13,057 bases of DNA, taken from a virus. Lineage: Duplodnaviria; Heunggongvirae; Uroviricota; Caudoviricetes. Under the pieces are notes generated by a model. It saw only the letters and a program-made list of their open reading frames with translations, ran no database searches and was not told the DNA's origin. This document shows, piece by piece, positions 820 to 13,057 of this stretch. Where the stretch lies: the IMG/VR virus record IMGVR_UViG_2778261569_000004. One strand, written 5' to 3'. The position numbers and the translations under genes were made by a program. Numbering within the stretch: position 1 is the first letter of the stretch; every line of letters begins with the position of its first letter.

Positions 820-2255
820 CAGAATCCTCCTTTCTTCTTGGACTGCGGTTCCTCGCGTTCACGTCGGCGCATTTCAGCAGACTGTTGGTCTGTGTCATAA
901 ATAGCGCCATTTGCCTGAATGCAATACACCGTGCCGGTATTGCCATGACGATTGAGACGAAGGATTAGTTCGGTTTCACCAGGTGGAACACTGTCATCAA
1001 AAGCACCTTCACGATGGATCCCCACCCAATAATCGCAATCCTGTTCAATCTGCCCTGTATCTCGTGAGTCACTTGGTAATGGGCGTTTATTGGTTCGGCT
1101 TTCCAGTGCGCGGTTAAGTTGCGTCAGAAGCACAACAACGCAATCAAGCTCTTTGGCAAGGTTCTTCAGTCCTTTGGTGATCATGCCGTAAGCAAGGTCG
1201 TTGCGATCGGCCTTCTCAGCGGTCATTAGTGTCAGGTAATCGACCAGAATCATGCCAACACATCCTTTTTCTCGCTTGATTCGACGGCTTTCGCTGACGA
1301 TTTGAGCCAGAGATAATCCCGGCGTGTCGTCGATGTAAAGCATGTCGATTTCACTCAAGCGATTGGCTGTTTCGATCGCCCTGTTGAAGTCACCATCGTA
1401 ATCACCCTGATAGCCGTCATCGGCGTCATTTGTCGCCGGAAGGTAAAAAATATTCGGGTTAACACCAGACTTCTGCCCTACCAGTTTTTCCAGTATCTGA
1501 TCACCTGGCATTTCAAGGCTGAACATCAGAGCGGGCTTTTTCTCATGCACTGCGCAATTGATTGCCATCTGGCTGTATAGCGTCGTTTTCCCCATCTTAG
1601 GGCGAGCGCCAATGACAAACAGAGAGCCTTTCACCAGACCTTTCGGTGACAGCATCCTGTCCAGCGATGGGATCCCTGTGCTCATTCCCCGTTGTTCGCC
1701 TGATGGGTCAAATCGCTTCTCAAGGTCGCTAACCCAGTCTTCCATGACCTCGCCAAATGAGCGAAGGCCGCGACGCGATCCGGTTTTTGCATGGTCTGTC
1801 AGTTGCGTGAAAATCGCCTGAATAGCTTCGTACTTCTGCGTCGCAGTCATTCCGTTGCGGGAATAGAGCAATTCCGTCGCTTCAGTCATGCGGTTGATGG
1901 CGTAGCGTTCCATTGCGGTTTCGCGAACCTGCATTGCATAGGCAACGATGTTTGCGGCGCTCGGCGTGTTCTTTGCGATCTCAGCGATATAAGCAAAACC
2001 GCCAACAGACGCCGTTAACGATTTACGCTCCAGTTCATCGAAAAGCGTCAGGCCATCTACTGGCTTTTGCTCCCGGTGCATTCTGGTTATTTCTTCGAAA
2101 AGGATTTTGTGTGGTCGGCTGTAAAATGAATCGGGCTTCAGCATCGCCAGAACTTTCTGGACGCGCTCACTGCTGTCATCATCCAGAAGCAATCCACCAA
2201 TCACCGCCTGCTCTGCCTCGATGCTATGGGGCGGCGCATAAAAATTATCGGTCAT
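819..2255 (-). CDS. Replicative DNA helicase, DnaB family (P22 gene 12-type)
   Basis: N-terminal motif PHSIEAEQAVIGGLLLDD typical of the DnaB N-terminal domain; Walker A GARPKMGKTT; Walker B-like ILVDYLTLM; overall RecA-like helicase layout. Start placed at ATG 2255 ([11 protein letters not shown]) with a GAGGGTGA Shine-Dalgarno upstream, rather than the GTG at 2270 used by the ORF track. Confidence 0.9.
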   Translation of the reverse strand: MTDNFYAPPHSIEAEQAVIGGLLLDDDSSERVQKVLAMLKPDSFYSRPHKILFEEITRMHREQKPVDGLTLFDELERKSLTASVGGFAYIAEIAKNTPSAANIVAYAMQVRETAMERYAINRMTEATELLYSRNGMTATQKYEAIQAIFTQLTDHAKTGSRRGLRSFGEVMEDWVSDLEKRFDPSGEQRGMSTGIPSLDRMLSPKGLVKGSLFVIGARPKMGKTTLYSQMAINCAVHEKKPALMFSLEMPGDQILEKLVGQKSGVNPNIFYLPATNDADDGYQGDYDGDFNRAIETANRLSEIDMLYIDDTPGLSLAQIVSESRRIKREKGCVGMILVDYLTLMTAEKADRNDLAYGMITKGLKNLAKELDCVVVLLTQLNRALESRTNKRPLPSDSRDTGQIEQDCDYWVGIHREGAFDDSVPPGETELILRLNRHGNTGTVYCIQANGAIYDTDQQSAEMRRREREEPQSKKKGGF

Positions 2256-3144
2256 CGTGTTCACCCTCACGAACTTTCAGGTAGGTATTGTCGTTAAGCA
2301 GGAAATCAAATCCCTTTTTGTGCCAGACGGTTCCGCGCTGATGGTTTGGGCGCTCTTCGAACATCCATCGGCAATTTTCGCCTACGTAGCTCAAATAATT
2401 TCTCCAGTCCTGCATCGTGAACCCATGCCCGTCAAGCTGGCGGGTTATCACTCCGGCTTTGCGCCAGAACGTTCGGATCTGGTTTTTACGCTTGTCATTC
2501 AGTGCGCGGATTTTTGGCGCTTCAGGAAGGATTTCGTGGTAAGCATCGACAACATCCTGACAGCTGACGGAAGGTTTTTTCTTGTCAGACTTTTTGTCTG
2601 CTGTGGCACTCTCTAATACGTCAGTATTAGAGATAATATTATTATATTCTTTATCTGTGGTAATTTGCTGGTAATCTGCTGGTACAGTATTGCTTGCAGG
2701 CATTGGTATTGCTGGCTTTGAGGTGGTAATTTGCTGGTAATCTGCTGGTACAAAATTTGACTGATAATCGTCATATTTCTCTACCGAGAAAACTGAGAAT
2801 TTACCGTGTGAAACCCAGTCAATCATGCCGAGTTTTTTGAACTTTCTAAGCAGGTACTGAACGCGATCTGGTTTGAGTCCTGTTTCAAACGCCAGAGAGT
2901 TTCTACCGCCAAGTAGCTTCCCTCTGCCTACCAGAATTTCTCCTGCGTCAGTCATTACATACTCAGGCGTATGCTTTGCTTTGAGGATTAAGTGAACCCA
3001 CAGATGCGCAGCTTCTGCGTCCTTGTAAAACGGCACATCCATAATTTTACGGTGCAGCAAGGCATACCCCTTACCGCTGCTTTGATGCGGTTGTTGTAGC
3101 CTTCTGGCCTCTCTGGCTTCGGCTAGATTAGATATGTTACTCAT
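2245..3144 (-). CDS. Replication initiator protein (lambda O / P22 gene 18 analogue) with origin iterons inside its coding sequence
   Basis: Sits between cII and the helicase as O does in lambdoid phages. Contains a direct-repeat iteron array plus an adjacent AT-rich tract (see repeat feature). AAGGAG Shine-Dalgarno before ATG 3144. The 3' end overlaps the helicase start by 11 nt. The protein is not obviously lambda-O-like by eye, so the family assignment rests on position and the iterons. Confidence 0.7.
2657..2753. repeat. Origin-of-replication iteron array (ori) inside the O-like gene
   Basis: Two perfect 30-bp direct repeats GTGGTAATTTGCTGGTAATCTGCTGGTACA at 2657-2686 and 2724-2753. Each holds two approximately 11-bp subunits GGTAAT(T/C)TGCTGG, with a degenerate copy GGTATTGCTGG at 2705-2716. 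An AT-rich tract (about 2615-2655) lies downstream in the O reading direction, as at ori-lambda. The repeats encode a duplicated [10 protein letters not shown] peptide in the initiator. Confidence 0.7.
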
Positions 3145-3283: not shown

Positions 3284-3317
3284 AATTACTCCTGTGGATT
3301 GATCCAGTCTTTCTACA

Positions 3318-3596
3318 TCAGGCCTCGAAGAATTCGCCGTTCTTCGGGGCTTTTTCTTTTGTCAGGATTCTGGCTACTTTCTTAGCCAGTTCCGCCAACT
3401 CCTCGTCTTCAACACCCCATTCAAGAACAGCCAGAAGCATTCCCATTTTGGGGATGAAGCTATCTTTCCATCGCGAAATTTGCGATTCATTAATCCCTAA
3501 CGCGTCGGCAACCTTTCGCTGACCACGTACAGCAATTCGATTCAGGATGTTGCTTGTAATTGCATTCGCTTTCTTGCGAGTACTTGTAAGTTGCAT
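3318..3596 (-). CDS. cII: CII transcriptional activator (lysogeny establishment)
   Basis: Recognised similarity to lambda CII, including the near-identical block SQISRWK...[13 protein letters not shown]. The translation-initiation region TAAGGAAATACTTACATATG matches the classic lambda cII ribosome-binding site, so the start is ATG 3596, not the upstream start in the ORF track. Confidence 0.85.
3323..3360 (+). terminator. Rho-independent terminator on the strand antisense to cII (oop-like terminator)
   Basis: Stem CCTCGAAGAA/TTCTTCGGGG (3323-3332 / 3340-3349, one G-U pair), 7-nt loop, then CTTTTTCTTTT (3350-3360). It lies on the plus strand inside the 3' end of minus-strand cII, the geometry of the lambda oop RNA terminator. 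Confidence 0.55.
3550..3563 (+). promoter_or_regulatory. CII-binding site TTGC-N6-TTGC (PRE-like establishment promoter -35 region)
   Basis: TTGCTTGTAATTGC on the plus strand inside the cII N-terminal codons, oriented to drive transcription antisense through cro towards cI, as lambda PRE does. The -10 element is not confidently identified. Confidence 0.5.
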
Positions 3597-3655
3597 ATGT
3601 AAGTATTTCCTTAACAAATAAGAAGTTATGCGCATCAAATTATGCGCGTTGTATT

Positions 3656-3698
3656 CCCGCATTTCGGCGGGAATGATGACCATGACTGTTAAAGAGCG
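3656..3698 (-). promoter_or_regulatory. nutR site (boxA plus boxB hairpin)
   Basis: On the minus strand just after the cro stop: boxA CGCTCTTTAACA (plus 3687-3698, reverse complement), then boxB hairpin CCCGC-CGAAAT-GCGGG (plus 3656-3671). The boxB sequence is identical to the one at nutL. Confidence 0.6.
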
Positions 3699-3704
3699 GT
3701 GTTA

Positions 3705-3899
3705 CTATTTGTTTTTCTTGTTGCTTGGGAAAGGACGAACTTCCTCTCCAATCACACTGCCATCAGGCTTTACCGTAACCATGATGTTACGGCCTGCCAG
3801 AATGGCCTTGCTGATAGCGCACTGGATTACACCAAAGTCACTGGCTGCTTTAGCCTGTCCATGGATTTTGGCGTAATCGGCAAGTGTCATTCGAATCAT
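3705..3899 (-). CDS. cro: Cro repressor
   Basis: Recognised similarity to lambda Cro (TLADYA..GQ.K.A.D.GV.Q.AI.KAI.AGR.I.....DGSV..EEV.PFPSNKK). Start placed at ATG 3899 with a GGAGAG Shine-Dalgarno 5 nt upstream. Divergent from cI across the operator region. Confidence 0.85.
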
Positions 3900-3929
3900 A
3901 TGCACTCTCCGTTATTAACCATGAACAAA

Positions 3930-3995
3930 GAATACTACAGGTATTCAAAGCAATCAATACTCAGGGTATTTTTAGTTTAAGTACCTTAGCTATTA
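3930..3995. promoter_or_regulatory. OR operator region: three 17-bp operators with divergent PR and PRM promoters
   Basis: Operators GAATACTACAGGTATTC (3930-3946) and CAATACTCAGGGTATTT (3955-3971) are palindromic; a degenerate third site AAGTACCTTAGCTATTA lies at 3979-3995. Centre spacings are 25 and 24 bp. PR candidate on the minus strand: -35 TTGATT, 17-bp spacer, -10 TATTCT. PRM candidate on the plus strand: -10 TAGAAT at 3994-3999, which places +1 at about the A of the cI ATG (leaderless; no Shine-Dalgarno before cI). Confidence 0.6.
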
Positions 3996-4005
3996 GAATT
4001 AAGCT

Positions 4006-4722
4006 ATGGAAAATAAAAAATCACTGACGACAGAACAGCTCGAAGACGCTAAGCGGCTTAAGGCTTTGTATGAGTCAAAAAAGAAAGAATTGGGAATAAC
4101 CCAATACTCAATCGCTGATGAACTGGGTATCACCCAAGGAGCGGTAGGGCATTATCTTAATGGCAGAAACGCGCTAAACGTTGAGGTCGCATCTGGTTTT
4201 GCACGTTTGTTGCAAGTCTCAATTGCTGATTTTAGCCAGTCAATTGCTGCCAAGGTTGCAGAACAGGCAGAAAGCCTTAAGAGCGATGCCAACGTAAGGT
4301 ATGCAGGGGAATACAGAGCAGGAAAGAGGTATCCGGTGTTAAGCAGTATCCAGGCTGGCTCGTGGTGTGAAGCATGCGAACCATACACCATTAAAGACAT
4401 AGATGTTTGGCTTGAGTCTGACGCGCATATTCAAGGTAATGCGTTCTGGCTTAAAGTGGAAGGTGATTCAATGACGGCACCGGTTGGGTTAAGCATTCCA
4501 GAGGGAACATTCGTTCTTTTCGATACCGGAAGGGAGGCGATCAACGGCAGCTTGGTCATAGCAAAACTTTCTGACTCTAACGAAGCAACATTCAAGAAGC
4601 TGATAATCGACGGCGGAAATAAATACCTCAAGGGACTTAATCCTGCATGGCCTCTCGTGCCAATCAATGGAAACTGCAAGATTATAGGCGTTGCAATTGA
4701 GACAAAACTAAGGCTGGTTTGA
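4006..4722 (+). CDS. cI: CI repressor (HTH DNA-binding domain plus LexA/S24-type autocleavage domain)
   Basis: Recognised similarity to lambda CI: N-terminal LTxEQLEDAKRLKALYE.KK.ELG..Q.S.AD..G and C-terminal FWL.VEGDSMTAP ... ATFKKLI (Ser/Lys dyad). Divergent from cro. Confidence 0.9.
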   Translation: MENKKSLTTEQLEDAKRLKALYESKKKELGITQYSIADELGITQGAVGHYLNGRNALNVEVASGFARLLQVSIADFSQSIAAKVAEQAESLKSDANVRYAGEYRAGKRYPVLSSIQAGSWCEACEPYTIKDIDVWLESDAHIQGNAFWLKVEGDSMTAPVGLSIPEGTFVLFDTGREAINGSLVIAKLSDSNEATFKKLIIDGGNKYLKGLNPAWPLVPINGNCKIIGVAIETKLRLV

Positions 4723-4739
4723 TCACGCAAGGGGCGATT

Positions 4740-5108
4740 ATGGTTGGAACCGCTATAGCAAGCTTTTTTGGGATGTTGGCAATCTCGACAATTTACGGCT
4801 TAGCGCATGCTTTTATTGCGAAATCTCTATCAGAAAAAATAAGCCAGGCTTGGGCGCATAGATCAGCTCGTTTCATGATTCTGGTGATCATAGCAATACA
4901 AGGGATATCTGCATTTATCCTCTATGGATCAAGCTTATACCTATTGTATCAAGGCGCGACATTTACGCCTTACACCAGTGATTACGGAACTCTATACGAT
5001 GGTAGTGAAGACATCACTGTGGCTTGGATCGTCTTTGGTTTATCTATGGCCGTGTCTGTTGTAGCAGACATCATTAAGGTAATTCTCGTCTTAACCTTCG
5101 CTGACTAA
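4740..5108 (+). CDS. Small integral membrane protein in the rex/sie position, co-transcribed with cI (candidate superinfection-exclusion or defence protein)
   Basis: ORF track frame 4719..5108; start placed at ATG 4740 with an AAGGGG Shine-Dalgarno, 18 nt after the cI stop. Three hydrophobic helices predicted by eye (about residues 1-25, 45-70 and 95-120). It occupies the lambda rexAB slot between cI and OL. No homologue recognised. Confidence 0.6.
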   Translation: MVGTAIASFFGMLAISTIYGLAHAFIAKSLSEKISQAWAHRSARFMILVIIAIQGISAFILYGSSLYLLYQGATFTPYTSDYGTLYDGSEDITVAWIVFGLSMAVSVVADIIKVILVLTFAD

Positions 5109-5193
5109 CCTATAATCCCGGCAGCAATAGCTATCGGGATCCACTTCACATATCCCGCATAAAAAGCACTGAACAAGCAGACACCGAAAAAAT

Positions 5194-5281
5194 AAATATC
5201 CTTTGTATTCATTTGCTTATCATTATTTCACCAAAAATAAATACCTTGGGTATTTACACAATAAAATACCTACAGTATTCT
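5194..5281 (+). promoter_or_regulatory. OL operator region and PL promoter
   Basis: Three 17-bp operators of the same family as OR: AAATATCCTTTGTATTC (5194-5210), AAATACCTTGGGTATTT (5239-5255) and AAATACCTACAGTATTC (5264-5280). PL candidate: -35 TTTACA (5253-5258), 17-bp spacer, -10 TATTCT (5276-5281), overlapping the operators as in lambda. Confidence 0.55.
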
Positions 5282-5326
5282 TTAGCCATCAGCAGGGCGC
5301 TGGAAGCCAAACGGAACAGATTGGCA

Positions 5327-5367
5327 GGCTCTTTAACATTGATGGGATTGTCCCGCCGAAATGCGGG
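5327..5367 (+). promoter_or_regulatory. nutL site (boxA plus boxB hairpin)
   Basis: boxA GGCTCTTTAACA (5327-5338) followed by boxB CCCGC-CGAAAT-GCGGG (5352-5367), identical to the boxB at nutR; lies in the leader between PL and N. Confidence 0.6.
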
Positions 5368-5475
5368 AACCAAAGAGTAGTTGGCTTTGGGGTGACGTGA
5401 AGTGCAGCTGCACGACGGCAACCGGAAGATAAGCACCCGGCGCGTCACCGCCAAAGTCAATCATCGGAGGTCAAC

Positions 5476-5748
5476 ATGACAGTAGTCATTACATATCTGG
5501 CTGACGATAACGCCAGAAATCGCCGCAGAGCACGCAGACAGGCTCAACGTGAACAGGCAATGCAAGAGCAGCGACTGGCACGAAAAATTGCGCTAAAGCT
5601 CTCTGGTTGCGTCAGAGCAGATAAAGCAGCATCACTCGGAAGCCTTTGCTGCAAGGAAGAAGATGAACGCAGTGGAAGTATTTGCCTGCCAAACGTAGCC
5701 ATTTACGCGGCAGGATACCGGAAATCAAAACAACTGACAGCGAGGTAA
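5476..5748 (+). CDS. N: Antitermination protein N (P22 gene 24-like)
   Basis: N-terminal arginine-rich motif NARNRRRARRQAQREQ (boxB RNA-binding ARM); C-terminus ...AIYAAGYRKSKQLTAR resembles my recollection of P22 gp24; GGAGG Shine-Dalgarno; first gene downstream of PL and nutL. Confidence 0.8.
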   Translation: MTVVITYLADDNARNRRRARRQAQREQAMQEQRLARKIALKLSGCVRADKAASLGSLCCKEEDERSGSICLPNVAIYAAGYRKSKQLTAR

Positions 5749-5751
5749 GTG

Positions 5752-5976
5752 ATGAATCAGACATACATTCCATCATGCTTGAGAAATCTGCCAAAGCAGA
5801 AAGCAAAGCCCCGCAAGCAAGCCATAAAGGACGCTAAGGCAGAGGTTATTGATCAAGCAATACAATTGCTCAGGGAGGAGTTAAGAAGTGGCAAGCTCGA
5901 AGGAATGATGATGCCCTATCAGCGCGGATATCTATCGGCGATTAGTAAGTTGGAAGTATTGAAGAGTGAATTATGA
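5752..5976 (+). CDS. Hypothetical early protein (74 aa)
   Basis: ATG 5752 with a GAGG Shine-Dalgarno, starting 4 nt after the N stop. Basic N-terminus, predicted helical. In the position of ral or kil-type genes but not recognisably similar. Confidence 0.45.
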   Translation: MNQTYIPSCLRNLPKQKAKPRKQAIKDAKAEVIDQAIQLLREELRSGKLEGMMMPYQRGYLSAISKLEVLKSEL

Positions 5977-6038
5977 ACTATCTGGAATTTCCGGATGGTT
6001 CATTGTTTTGGCAGCAAACCACTTATTTGAGGTGATGT

Positions 6039-6125: not shown

Positions 6126-6309
6126 TAAAAATCAATGGTGTGGACAATTCAAGCGATGCAATGGATGCAAGCTGCAATCGGAATGCATGGTTAAGCCTGA
6201 AGAAATGTTTCCTGTAATGGAAGATGGGGAATATGTCGATAAATGGGCAATACGAACGACGGCAATGATTGCCAGAGAACTTGGTAAACTGAACAACAAG
6301 GCTGCCTGA
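6109..6309 (+). CDS. Hypothetical small Cys-containing protein (66 aa)
   Basis: ORF track. Four cysteines in CGQFKRCNGCKLQSEC, a possible metal-binding knuckle. Ends just before a terminator. Confidence 0.4.
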   Translation: MTTTIDKNQWCGQFKRCNGCKLQSECMVKPEEMFPVMEDGEYVDKWAIRTTAMIARELGKLNNKAA

Positions 6310-6327
6310 TGGCGGCCTTTATTTTTG
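6298..6327 (+). terminator. Rho-independent terminator
   Basis: Stem AAGGCTGCC/GGCGGCCTT with a TGAT tetraloop, followed by TATTTTTGG. Confidence 0.6.
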
Positions 6328-6845: not shown

Positions 6846-7039
6846 TACGAATAAGCACTGTGTATTCATTCCAACGAGTGAATACACGGAGCAATGTCGC
6901 TCGTAACTAAACAGGAGCCGACTTGTTCTGATTATTGGAAATCTTCTTTGCCCTCCAGTGTGAGGGCCTTTTTATATGCATACCAATAACGCTTCACTCG
7001 AGGCGTTTTCGTTATGCAATCAAACAGAAGGAGCATCCT

Positions 7040-11902: not shown

Positions 11903-12094
11903 ATGACCGATACCAGCCTGATTCCTGAGAAAGAAGTGATGAACAAGCTCGGTGTTTCATCACGTCAGACAATCTGGAACTATACCAAACGACACGGATT
12001 TCCGAAGCCAGTCAGAACCCACCCCAAATCATACCTTCGTGAAGCTGTTGAAGGGTGGATTCTTAACGGTGGCGTTAATCAGAAATGCTCCTGA
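11903..12094 (+). CDS. xis: AlpA-type excisionase / DNA-binding regulator
   Basis: AlpA-family pattern (EVMNKLGVSSRQTIWNYTKRHGFPKPVR...W). The 3' end overlaps the integrase 3' end, convergently. Confidence 0.55.
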   Translation: MTDTSLIPEKEVMNKLGVSSRQTIWNYTKRHGFPKPVRTHPKSYLREAVEGWILNGGVNQKCS

Positions 12095-12499
12095 TGTGCC
12101 AGAACAATTTATCAGCGTGAAGCTCATACGCTTTGCGCTGAGCCTCTATCCAATCGTGTTTATTGTATACGGACATTATCCCGCCAAGTTCATGACCGAG
12201 CATTCGCTCAGTAACATGAGGCTCGACATTCATCTCGGACAGACGTGTAACAAGCGTTCTTCTGAAATCATGTGTTCGCCAGTAACCTAGATCCATCCCT
12301 CCCCTTATTCTATTTACGAATCGGTTGGCTGCAGCGATGCTGATCGGTTTGTTTATGTCTTCTCCAGGGAAAAGAACATCATTGTACGTTGTCATGGCCT
12401 TTTCGAGAAAAGGCTTAATTTGTTCGAAGATTGGACGACGGATAACATTACCCATCTTGCTATGCTCTTTCGGTACGGTCCATACGTTGTCCAGCAGGT
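12075..12499 (-). pseudogene. int: Tyrosine integrase, C-terminal catalytic fragment only; N-terminal part displaced by an IS insertion
   Basis: Catalytic motifs HDFRRT and LGHELGGIMSVYNKHDW (Tyr nucleophile) present. The reading frame runs upstream without a stop to the IS terminus at 12500; the conserved box I Arg and the N-terminal domain are absent from this side. Confidence 0.75.

Positions 12500-13057
<558 letters not shown>

Follow-up and report, generated by a model that had tools for sequence, protein, structure and literature searches.

Phages lambda, P22 and phi21 supply the series of N/boxB pairs used for studying how arginine-rich motifs recognise RNA. The boxB RNAs of lambda and P22 both fold as pentaloops from which one base is extruded (PMC12550061); in the P22 pentaloop, GACAA, it is the C that is looped out, and this base is touched by the peptide (PMC12550061). 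The phi21 boxB structure is organised differently, with a C·C pair that flanks a four-nucleotide GNRA-like core inside a hexaloop (PMC12550061). The boxA element reads CGCUCUUA in lambda and UGCUCUUUA in the E. coli rrn operons, where antitermination is independent of N and boxB (PMC2724277). Here we compare these systems with a pair of nut sites in a 13,057-nt viral sequence (IMG/VR record IMGVR_UViG_2778261569_000004, hereafter the window).

Results

Along the window we read the order cII, nutR, cro, cI, pL, nutL and N, with nutL placed between pL and N, nutR between cro and cII, and each site in the sense of its own operon. The promoter pL (5253-5281, + strand; TTTACA-17-TATTCT), which would transcribe nutL and N, was called by a promoter scan and coincides with pL of phage HK620 (L001 3454-3489). 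The consensus promoter scan missed pR, the promoter of cro, nutR and cII, which we placed at 3922-3957 (- strand) by homology with HK620 (L001 2123-2158, offset +1799); TTGATT-17-TATTCT can be read there. On the pR transcript, cro (3705-3899, - strand; Pfam Cro, E = 4e-26, and HK620 annotation) directly precedes nutR, and the first gene 3' of nutR and tR1 is cII (3318-3596, - strand; Pfam Phage_CII, E = 1e-42, and HK620 annotation). The cI repressor lies between the two nut sites (4006-4722, + strand; Pfam HTH_3 and Peptidase_S24; HK620 cI). The gene for the 90-residue antitermination protein N (5476-5748, + strand) matches Pfam PF25694 N_peptide with E = 5e-15. A terminator scan of the pL operon 3' of N found an intrinsic-terminator-like hairpin at 6298-6319 (+ strand), likely a target of antitermination, and further terminator-like hairpins at 5973-6003, 6950-6967 and 6988-7007. 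The terminator-like sites 3' of the nut sites stand on the correct strands.

Over the 2.45 kb that run from cII to N, the window shares 98.3% identity with HK620. The record of that phage (GenBank AF335538) annotates a putative N-utilization leftward and a putative N-utilization rightward site, together with pL, pR and tR1, at homologous coordinates: HK620 nutL (L001 3528-3569) corresponds to window 5327-5368, and HK620 nutR (L001 1854-1899) to window 3653-3698. At the nut sites nothing of substance sets the two phages apart. They have identical boxA and boxB elements, placed alike with respect to pL, N, cro and cII, and a single base distinguishes their nutR spacers; 3' of N, the pL operons diverge. 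The surrounding phage background differs from that of HK620 and matches Stx-phage phi296/phi367 and E. coli O111 prophages at 100% identity. The first-pass annotation of the two sites as nutL and nutR is borne out by their position and orientation, by boxA, boxB and the N gene, and by the annotation of sequence-identical homologous sites in HK620, and we assign a probability of about 0.9 to their being the nutL and nutR of a lambdoid prophage with the HK620 immunity and N module. Since they have been annotated ever since the HK620 record, the sites are not new; they are real, ordinary and common in E. coli, and 26 phage records as well as 500 of 5,426 complete E. coli genomes (about 9%) contain the same nutL. 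In the literature collection that we searched, no paper dealt with the N/boxB pair of HK620.

The boxB Hairpins and Their boxA Elements

The 16-nt boxB sequence CCCGCCGAAATGCGGG occurs exactly twice in the window, at 5352-5367 (+ strand) and 3656-3671 (- strand), so that an earlier statement that nutL and nutR carry identical boxB elements holds to the base. With two mismatches permitted, the same 16-mer appeared in 0 of 200 dinucleotide-preserving shuffles. Combining the copy scan with folding, we delimited the nutL hairpin as U-CCCGC-(C GAAA U)-GCGGG-A (5351-5368, + strand) and the nutR hairpin as AUUCCCGC-(C GAAA U)-GCGGGAAU (3653-3674, - strand). In nutL a U-A pair thus extends the stem CCCGC/GCGGG; in nutR the extension is AUU/AAU, and the predicted stem is longer (8 bp). 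Both sites are predicted to form stable hairpins (-7.9 to -9.7 kcal/mol, z about -2.3): boxB by itself folds as a 6-nt loop on a 5-bp stem at -7.9 kcal/mol (z = -2.2 to -2.3), and -9.7 kcal/mol is reached with the flanking U-A pair. In relatives of this locus, a 251-nt insertion 3' of boxB showed no significant folding signal (z = -0.89).

At nutL and nutR alike, boxB lies 12-14 nt 3' of the boxA word GCTCTTTAACA, which was found twice, at 5328-5338 (+ strand) and 3687-3697 (- strand). By chance 0.27 copies of this word would be expected, and two or more copies occurred in 7 of 200 shuffles. Read one base further 5', as in the first-pass annotation, the elements are GGCTCTTTAACA in nutL (5327-5338, + strand) and CGCTCTTTAACA in nutR (3687-3698, - strand), each within the span homologous to the annotated HK620 site, and both fit CGCUCUU(U)A. 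The proposed resemblance to the rrn consensus is confirmed, GCUCUUUA matching rrn UGCUCUUUA (PMC2724277). The spacers, read from the sequence, measure 12 nt each: TTGATGGGATTG in nutL (5339-5350, + strand) and GTCATGGTCATC in nutR (3675-3686, - strand). The ATYGAYG with which the nutL spacer begins recurs in phi21-type and other nutL sites that have different boxB hairpins, and phi21-type and Enterobacter nutR sites share part of the spacer start seen in nutR here.

We also considered that these hairpins might act as terminators or RNase III sites, or be inverted repeats that arose by chance beside boxA-like words, rather than bind a protein. The HK620 annotation places tR1 immediately 3' of nutR, and the leader regions of lambda are known to contain RNase III sites. 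Against this, no U-tract follows either hairpin and the terminator scan called neither; moreover, an exact 16-mer stands in opposite orientations with a boxA beside each copy, and it is strictly linked to one type of arginine-rich motif in N over at least 12 immunity types (see below). We regard a non-binding role as very improbable.

Structure of the boxB Loop

The loop of this boxB, C-GAAA-U, has a GNRA core without the fifth base that marks the lambda/P22 class, in which a Watson-Crick pair closes a G-N-(N)-R-A loop with one base looped out. It shares with the phi21-class hexaloop the pyrimidines, here C and U, on either side of a four-nucleotide core, but the UMAC core and the tyrosine-containing arginine-rich motif (ARM; SRYKARR) of that class are replaced by GAAA and NRRRARR. 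A scan of the whole window against Rfam at the gathering threshold matched no family, the same search of four related loci returned the cIII thermoregulator as sole match and no nut family, and a PDB sequence search with N gave no match even at E <= 10. As neither an Rfam family nor a solved structure matched, our reading of the loop is drawn from sequence comparison. Relatives with closely related ARMs carry the loops C-GAGA-U, C-GCAA-U and A-GAGA-U, so the four central bases vary within GNRA only (GAAA, GAGA, GCAA), and in the A-GAGA-U relative the tetraloop is closed by a Watson-Crick A-U pair. From these variants, together with P22 nutR boxB and the phi21 boxB structure, we consider the loop to be probably a true GNRA tetraloop (GAAA) between a C·U mismatch.

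Two alternatives are a flexible hexaloop and a lambda-like GAAAU pentaloop with an extruded fifth base, in which C7-G13 closes the loop and C6 is bulged. The minimum-free-energy fold does show a 6-nt loop, two successive Cs make the register ambiguous, and pentaloops with one extruded base have precedents in lambda and P22 (PMC12550061). Thermodynamic folding yields a plain 6-nt loop, a C·U-closed tetraloop being beyond its evaluation. When we tried the bulged-C pentaloop register, it proved 3.4 kcal/mol less stable (-6.3 vs -9.7 kcal/mol) and was rejected; it is also impossible in the relative L218, where CGC-A-GAGA-U-GCG forms an A-U pair at the flanks. Together with the restriction of the central bases to GNRA, this makes either form of the alternative unlikely. 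The 5-bp stem and 6-nt loop of the first-pass annotation agree with the predicted fold, but the loop is more likely a C·U-closed GNRA tetraloop. With this tetraloop, the element is best read, by comparison of sequences, as a P22 nutR boxB that lacks the extruded C and adopts the hexaloop layout of phi21 C-UAAC-C.

The ARM of N and boxB Travel Together

The ARM of N is NARNRRRARRQAQREQ (residues 12-27, nt 5509-5556), and it aligns with the ARMs of lambda, P22 and phi21. The aligned cores read N-A-R-N-R-R-R-A-R-R in the HK620-type protein, D-A-Q-T-R-R-R-E-R-R in lambda and N-A-K-T-R-R-H-E-R-R in P22. An alanine of the N protein here aligns with lambda Trp18, the residue that stacks on the lambda boxB loop.

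With these sequences we turned to the distribution of the two elements. The exact boxB was found upstream of N in 76 of 80 IMG/VR loci that encode HK620-type N, and about 70 of the 80 contained an inverted second copy 1.15-1.74 kb away, although most of these loci are close relatives and the counts do not represent independent events. Because one of the three collection scans used a fixed loop sequence, loop conservation in the set from that scan is partly ascertainment. A contig search with the N alignment was of no use for diversity, since it yielded three loci only, of which two lay on contigs of unlikely MAGs. The repressors found between the two copies of the exact boxB pair fall into at least 12 clusters (<70% identity), one of which we take from its sequence to be lambda-cI-like; therefore, nutR goes with N rather than with the immunity cassette.

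The ARM also moves relative to the rest of N. The same HK620-type ARM precedes P22-type, lambda/21-type or other C-termini in different N proteins, and the same boxB goes with it every time. In a natural swap, a phi21-type ARM (GTAKSRYKARRA) sits on the same middle and C-terminus, and here both nut sites carry a boxB with a CUAACC loop. Loci with RY-type ARMs carry CUAACC or CUAGCA loops, and Cedecea and Enterobacter prophages with an HK620-type ARM retain the CGAAAU loop on different stems. Among 16 distinct hairpins, four stem pairs were altered on both sides; the covariation score and the percentage of paired positions were reached by none of 500 shuffles, and every slid register scored lower. 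ARM type and boxB type change together on an otherwise common protein and leader backbone, which shows that the two are exchanged as one cassette, independent of the immunity region and the remainder of N.

These comparisons support the view that the HK620-type ARM and this boxB form a cognate pair, whose binding specificity we infer from the sequences. It could be objected that the nut sites are real but that the ARM lacks a private specificity and recognises every GNRA-like boxB, the lambda and P22 hairpins among them, so that the differences would reflect neutral drift within one specificity class. The ARM core is indeed common to HK620-type, lambda and P22 N, the stem and the flanking C are the same as in P22 nutR, and the boxB requirements of P22 overlap those of lambda according to the title of a paper by Cocozaki et al. 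(2008; cited in PMC8022706). We nevertheless consider a shared specificity somewhat unlikely. In all loci examined, the HK620-type ARM family was accompanied by (C/A)-GNRA-U loops only and never by GAAAA/GAAGA or GACAA pentaloops, and this pairing is kept while C-termini, spacers, leaders and immunity regions swap freely. The alanine at the position of lambda Trp18 points the same way. For the claim that this ARM has an RNA specificity of its own, the comparative support is therefore strong, short of proof.

Proposed Mechanism

By analogy with lambda, P22 and phi21, we infer that N binds boxB and mediates antitermination. The pL and pR transcripts would each present the consensus boxA GCUCUUUAACA and, after a spacer of 12 nt, an identical boxB hairpin. 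The N-terminal ARM of the 90-residue protein (residues about 9-30, DDNARNRRRARRQAQREQAM) would bind boxB on the nascent RNA, with NusB/NusE on boxA and NusA on the spacer. The resulting complex may enable RNA polymerase to read through tR1, which lies between nutR and cII, and through the terminators 3' of N. In lambda, a consensus boxA lessens the need for Nus factors, so the boxA here would predict a weaker Nus requirement than that of lambda.

Discussion

As annotation, these sites carry little weight, since nut sites of this kind are to be expected in an HK620-type immunity/N module and already stand in GenBank. The exchange of boxB/ARM cassettes is a comparative by-product of modest value, and it suggests that the common HK620-type cassette uses a plain GNRA tetraloop. 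If this reading is true, the cassette would extend the lambda, P22 and phi21 series, in use for the study of ARM-RNA recognition, by one natural variant, and further peptide/RNA tethering pairs orthogonal to lambda N/boxB could result. The broader proposal is that the HK620-type pair constitutes a fourth, structurally uncharacterised class of N/boxB recognition, defined by a C·U-closed true GNRA tetraloop, no extruded base and an ARM without the tryptophan of lambda, and that it belongs to a set of six or more natural ARM/boxB cassettes swapped on a common backbone of boxA, spacer and leader; we see the chances for and against it as evenly balanced.

The boxB described here had been said to differ from the lambda and P22 hairpins, and comparison with NC_001416 (lambda boxB GCCCTGAAGAAGGGC in nutL, GCCCTGAAAAAGGGC in nutR) and AB362338 (P22 boxB GCGCTGACAAAGCGC in nutL, CCGCCGACAACGCGG in nutR) bears this out, with the qualification that it appears related to that of P22 and is, as aligned, nearly the P22 nutR boxB minus the extra C. 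This nearest known hairpin reads CCGC-C-GACAA-C-GCGG, versus CCGC-C-GAAA-U-GCGG here. Both have the stem core CCGC/GCGG, a C at the 5' flank of the loop, and a pyrimidine-pyrimidine mismatch around a G-A..A-A core, but the site described here has only GAAA, and its 3' flank is U instead of C. P22 also has a consensus-type boxA (CGCTCTTTA), and its nutL spacer start, CTTCGATGA, is similar to, not identical with, ours. P22 gp24 (N) and the N protein here share MTV(V)ITY at the N-terminus and LPxVAxYAAGxRKSKQxTAR at the C-terminus, whereas their ARMs differ at most non-arginine positions and a stretch of three residues before the P22 ARM is missing here.

With lambda, the locus shares the boxA-spacer-boxB architecture, the two-site layout, the ARM core A-x-x-R-R-R-x-R-R and the motif GGCTTTGGGGTG 3' of nutL. 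It differs in that the lambda boxA is one U shorter (CGCTCTTA), that the lambda boxB, GCCCU-GAAAA/GAAGA-AGGGC, is a pentaloop closed by U-A, and that lambda N has Trp18 in place of alanine and an unrelated C-terminal module. The phi21 system resembles this locus in its hexaloop, with pyrimidines first and last around a four-nucleotide core (C-UAAC-C), in its boxA and spacer start and, in the relatives P0030 and P0008, in the middle and C-terminal modules of N; its core is UAAC instead of GNRA, and its ARM, GTAKSRYKARRAELIAERR, has tyrosine in place of the second arginine. Finally, the E. coli rrn boxA (UGCUCUUUAACAA) equals GCUCUUUAACA at every compared position (PMC2724277), but unlike its rrn counterpart the boxA here precedes an N-type boxB.

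Results

The immunity region of the window, as read from its ORFs and Pfam matches, is lambdoid and runs in the opposite orientation to the usual lambda map. The minus strand encodes a helicase (819-2270), an O-like replication protein (2245-3144), cII (3318-3596) and cro (3705-3899); the plus strand carries cI (4006-4722), a small membrane ORF (4740-5108), a promoter-like site coinciding with pL of phage HK620 (5253-5281) and N (5476-5748; Pfam N_peptide, PF25694), of which NARNRRRARRQAQREQ forms residues 12-27. The boxB 16-mer CCCGCCGAAATGCGGG has exactly two copies, 5352-5367 (+, nutL) and 3656-3671 (-, nutR), and in 200 shuffles we found no copy even with two mismatches allowed. BoxA GCTCTTTAACA (5328-5338, +; 3687-3697, -) precedes each copy by 12-14 nt and is of the consensus (rrn) type, as the first-pass annotation had proposed. 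RNA folding returned the 5-bp G+C stem and 6-nt loop described there (-7.9 kcal/mol; -9.7 kcal/mol with the flanking U-A pair), and at nutR the stem extends to 8 bp. Every detail of the earlier description, two identical boxB hairpins preceded by boxA, could be confirmed in the window.

A strong terminator-like hairpin (3320-3352, +; 14 pairs followed by a T-run) lies antisense to the 3' end of cII and resembles the terminator of the lambda OOP antisense RNA. At the end of the window, the adjoining ORFs 12075-12455 (-) and 12542-13033 (-) resemble, by eye from their translations, the C-terminal part of a phage integrase and an IS3-family transposase; an IS1203-family transposase is annotated in an O111 genome under part of the match to window 3300-5800. 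The prophage integrase may have been truncated by an IS.

Window positions 3300-5748 are 98.3% identical to coliphage HK620, and a 3300-5800 query matches Stx phages phi296 and phi367, as well as E. coli O111 prophages, at 100% identity. The HK620 record (AF335538) annotates pL, pR, operators and tR1 as well as "nutL; putative N-utilization leftward" and "nutR; putative N-utilization rightward", with spans that map to window 5327-5368 and 3653-3698. The HK620 boxA and boxB are identical to those of the window, and its nutR spacer differs by one base. This boxA is also flagged in the mEpX2, HK630 and HK140 records, and a 64-nt nutL query matches 500 of 5,426 complete E. coli genomes and 26 phage records. 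Given the HK620 annotation, these matches, the Pfam N assignment and the coincidence with pL, the element is a known and common nut-site pair; the first-pass finding is accurate and its interpretation sound, for a feature already annotated and widespread.

Since HK620 similarity stops at 5748, the pL operon downstream of N in the window is a different module. Rfam Lambda_thermo, the cIII thermoregulator, was matched in HK620 (L001, 5124-5182) and in the related locus L047 (4895-4953); in a scan of the window no Rfam family reached any threshold, Lambda_thermo included. Short contigs from MAGs labelled Segatella copri (L088) and Bacillales (L090) encode the window's type of enterobacterial phage N together with its nut sites, which likely reflects mis-binning or contamination.

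The window boxB had been described as different from those of lambda and P22, and the reference sequences bear this out. Lambda combines boxA CGCTCTTA with GCCCT-GAAGA-AGGGC (nutL) or GCCCT-GAAAA-AGGGC (nutR), P22 combines CGCTCTTTA with GCGCT-GACAA-AGCGC (nutL) or CCGC-C-GACAA-C-GCGG (nutR), and both window sites combine (G/C)GCTCTTTA with CCGC-C-GAAA-U-GCGG. Alignment of these hairpins shows that the window boxB is the P22 nutR hairpin without its looped-out C and with U rather than C as the 3' flank. P22 GACAA folds as a GNRA loop from which the C is extruded, and in the solved phi21 complex a C.C pair in the CUAACC hexaloop flanks a 4-nt GNRA-like core (PMC12550061). Among cassette relatives the central four loop bases are GAAA, GAGA or GCAA only, all within GNRA, and in the nutL of locus L218 these bases are flanked by an A and a U, which form a Watson-Crick pair. 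Four stem pairs are changed on both sides among 16 distinct hairpins; the covariation score of the set was reached by 0 of 500 shuffles and is higher than that of every slid register. The alternative register, a pentaloop with bulged C, is 3.4 kcal/mol less stable. From this likeness to P22 and phi21, the GNRA-only cores, the A-U pair, the covariation and the energy penalty, we infer that boxB is probably a stem of 6-8 bp capped by a GNRA tetraloop, with a C.U mismatch closing the loop.

The nutR sites of L086, L098, L101, L113, L198, L218 and L223 have one stem backbone, GCUCC-C-NN[loop]NN-N-GGAGC, in which the third pair counted from the loop is conserved as a mismatch, either C.C or C.A, for CGAAAU, CGCAAU and CUAACC loops alike.

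In an alignment, the window ARM and the lambda, P22 and phi21 ARMs share the core (N/D)-A-x-x-R-(R/Y)-x-x-R-R, and the window ARM has Ala at the position of lambda Trp18. Among 80 IMG/VR loci with N at least 93% identical to that of the window, 76 contain the exact boxB 16-mer upstream of N, and in about 70 a further copy stands inverted at a distance of 1.15-1.74 kb. The four exceptions are three loci in which the HK620-type N comes second in a tandem of N genes, and one locus without nutL, where unrelated sequence, possibly an IS insertion, takes its place. Across loci, the repressor between the two exact boxB copies belongs to at least 12 different clusters (<70% identity), one of them lambda-cI-like by our own sequence reading. 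As nutR and N stand on opposite sides of the immunity cassette, the nutR boxB goes with N rather than with the cassette.

N itself is mosaic: the C-terminus that accompanies the ARM module MTVVITYLADDNARNRRRARRQAQREQAM can be P22-type, lambda/21-type or of another type, and in Cedecea lapagei and Enterobacter sp. prophages an HK620-type ARM on divergent C-termini retains the CGAAAU loop. The N proteins P0030 and P0008 have their middle and C-terminus in common with HK620-type-ARM proteins but carry a phi21-type ARM, GTAKSRYKARRA; at these loci boxB is TCTCAAC-CTAACC-GTTGAGA (nutL) and TCACCT-CTAACC-GGGTGA, or its GGGTAA variant (nutR). A loop-unbiased scan, anchored solely on boxA and the nutL spacer start, gave a clean ARM-loop association. 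DNA(R/K)NRRRx(R/K)R occurs with C-GAAA-U (variants C-GAGA-U and A-GAGA-U, and C-GCAA-U at nutR), RY-containing ARMs (SRYKARR, NRYRARR) with CUAACC or CUAGCA, SRRYLKRGELIAKRR with CCUU or CCGU, and NSKTRKFKRTGEFF with AUAGU or AAAGU. All four cassettes have a common boxA and spacer start and, in most instances, a common downstream leader (…ACCAAAGAGCAGTTGGCTT…); ARM and boxB have evidently been exchanged together as one cassette. At the level of sequence, this exchange and the ARM-loop association support the first-pass proposal that the N ARM has its own RNA specificity, with boxB as its cognate partner.

In further loci (L214, L217, L219, L228, L237, L252; L233, L243; L215, L223), the SRRYLKRGELIAKRR cassette has CUCCCGC-CCUU-GUGGGAG at nutL and CCCCGC-CCGU-GUGGGG at nutR, the NSKTRKFKRTGEFF cassette has CCCGG-AUAGU-CUGGG and CCCGG-AAAGU-CUGGG, and the NRYRARR ARM pairs with CUAGCA.

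The N leader is mosaic too. Many relatives (L037, 2648-2900; also L041, L025, L045, L044, L003) carry an insertion of about 251 nt exactly 3' of the nutL boxB, with junctions GGGAAC/TGAGTTTAACC...GAGTGTGAGT/CAAAGAG; the window lacks it, the corresponding junction being 5370/5371. The insertion matches no Rfam family and gives no significant folding signal (z = -0.89). A second, alternative insertion of about 205 nt lies directly ahead of the N start codon in L047, L009 and L025 (…CAAAGTCAAT/TCCATAGGCGAAATGCAGCC…GTTGTTT/CATCGGAGG), and L042 and L041 have a third leader module. Tandem N genes occur in L045 (phage mEp213; 1218-1260 and 2600-3270), L044 and L003. The first N of the tandem is lambda/21-type and is accompanied by a lambda nutL (CGCTCTTAAAAATTAAGCCCTGAAGAAGGGC). 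The second N is HK620-type; ahead of it stands only the right-hand half of an HK620 boxB (GCCCTCCGAAATGCGGGAAC), without boxA, and it appears to have no cognate nut site.

Discussion

By homology to the established lambda N system, boxA, spacer and boxB would be exposed on the pL and pR transcripts, where NusB/NusE would bind boxA and NusA the spacer, as described (PMC2724277). The ARM of N would bind boxB and its C-terminal part would engage NusA and RNA polymerase. The polymerase would then read through tR1, annotated directly 3' of nutR in HK620, and through terminator-like hairpins downstream of N (5973-6003, 6298-6319, 6950-6967, 6988-7007).

The structures and literature searched yielded neither a solved structure of an HK620-type N/boxB pair nor a paper characterising one. 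P22 and phi21-type sites have a consensus boxA in common with the window, whose boxA is therefore not unusual among lambdoid phages. Recognition of boxB by the ARM in the HK620-type pair may be of a plain-GNRA kind, a variant that extends a very well understood system modestly.
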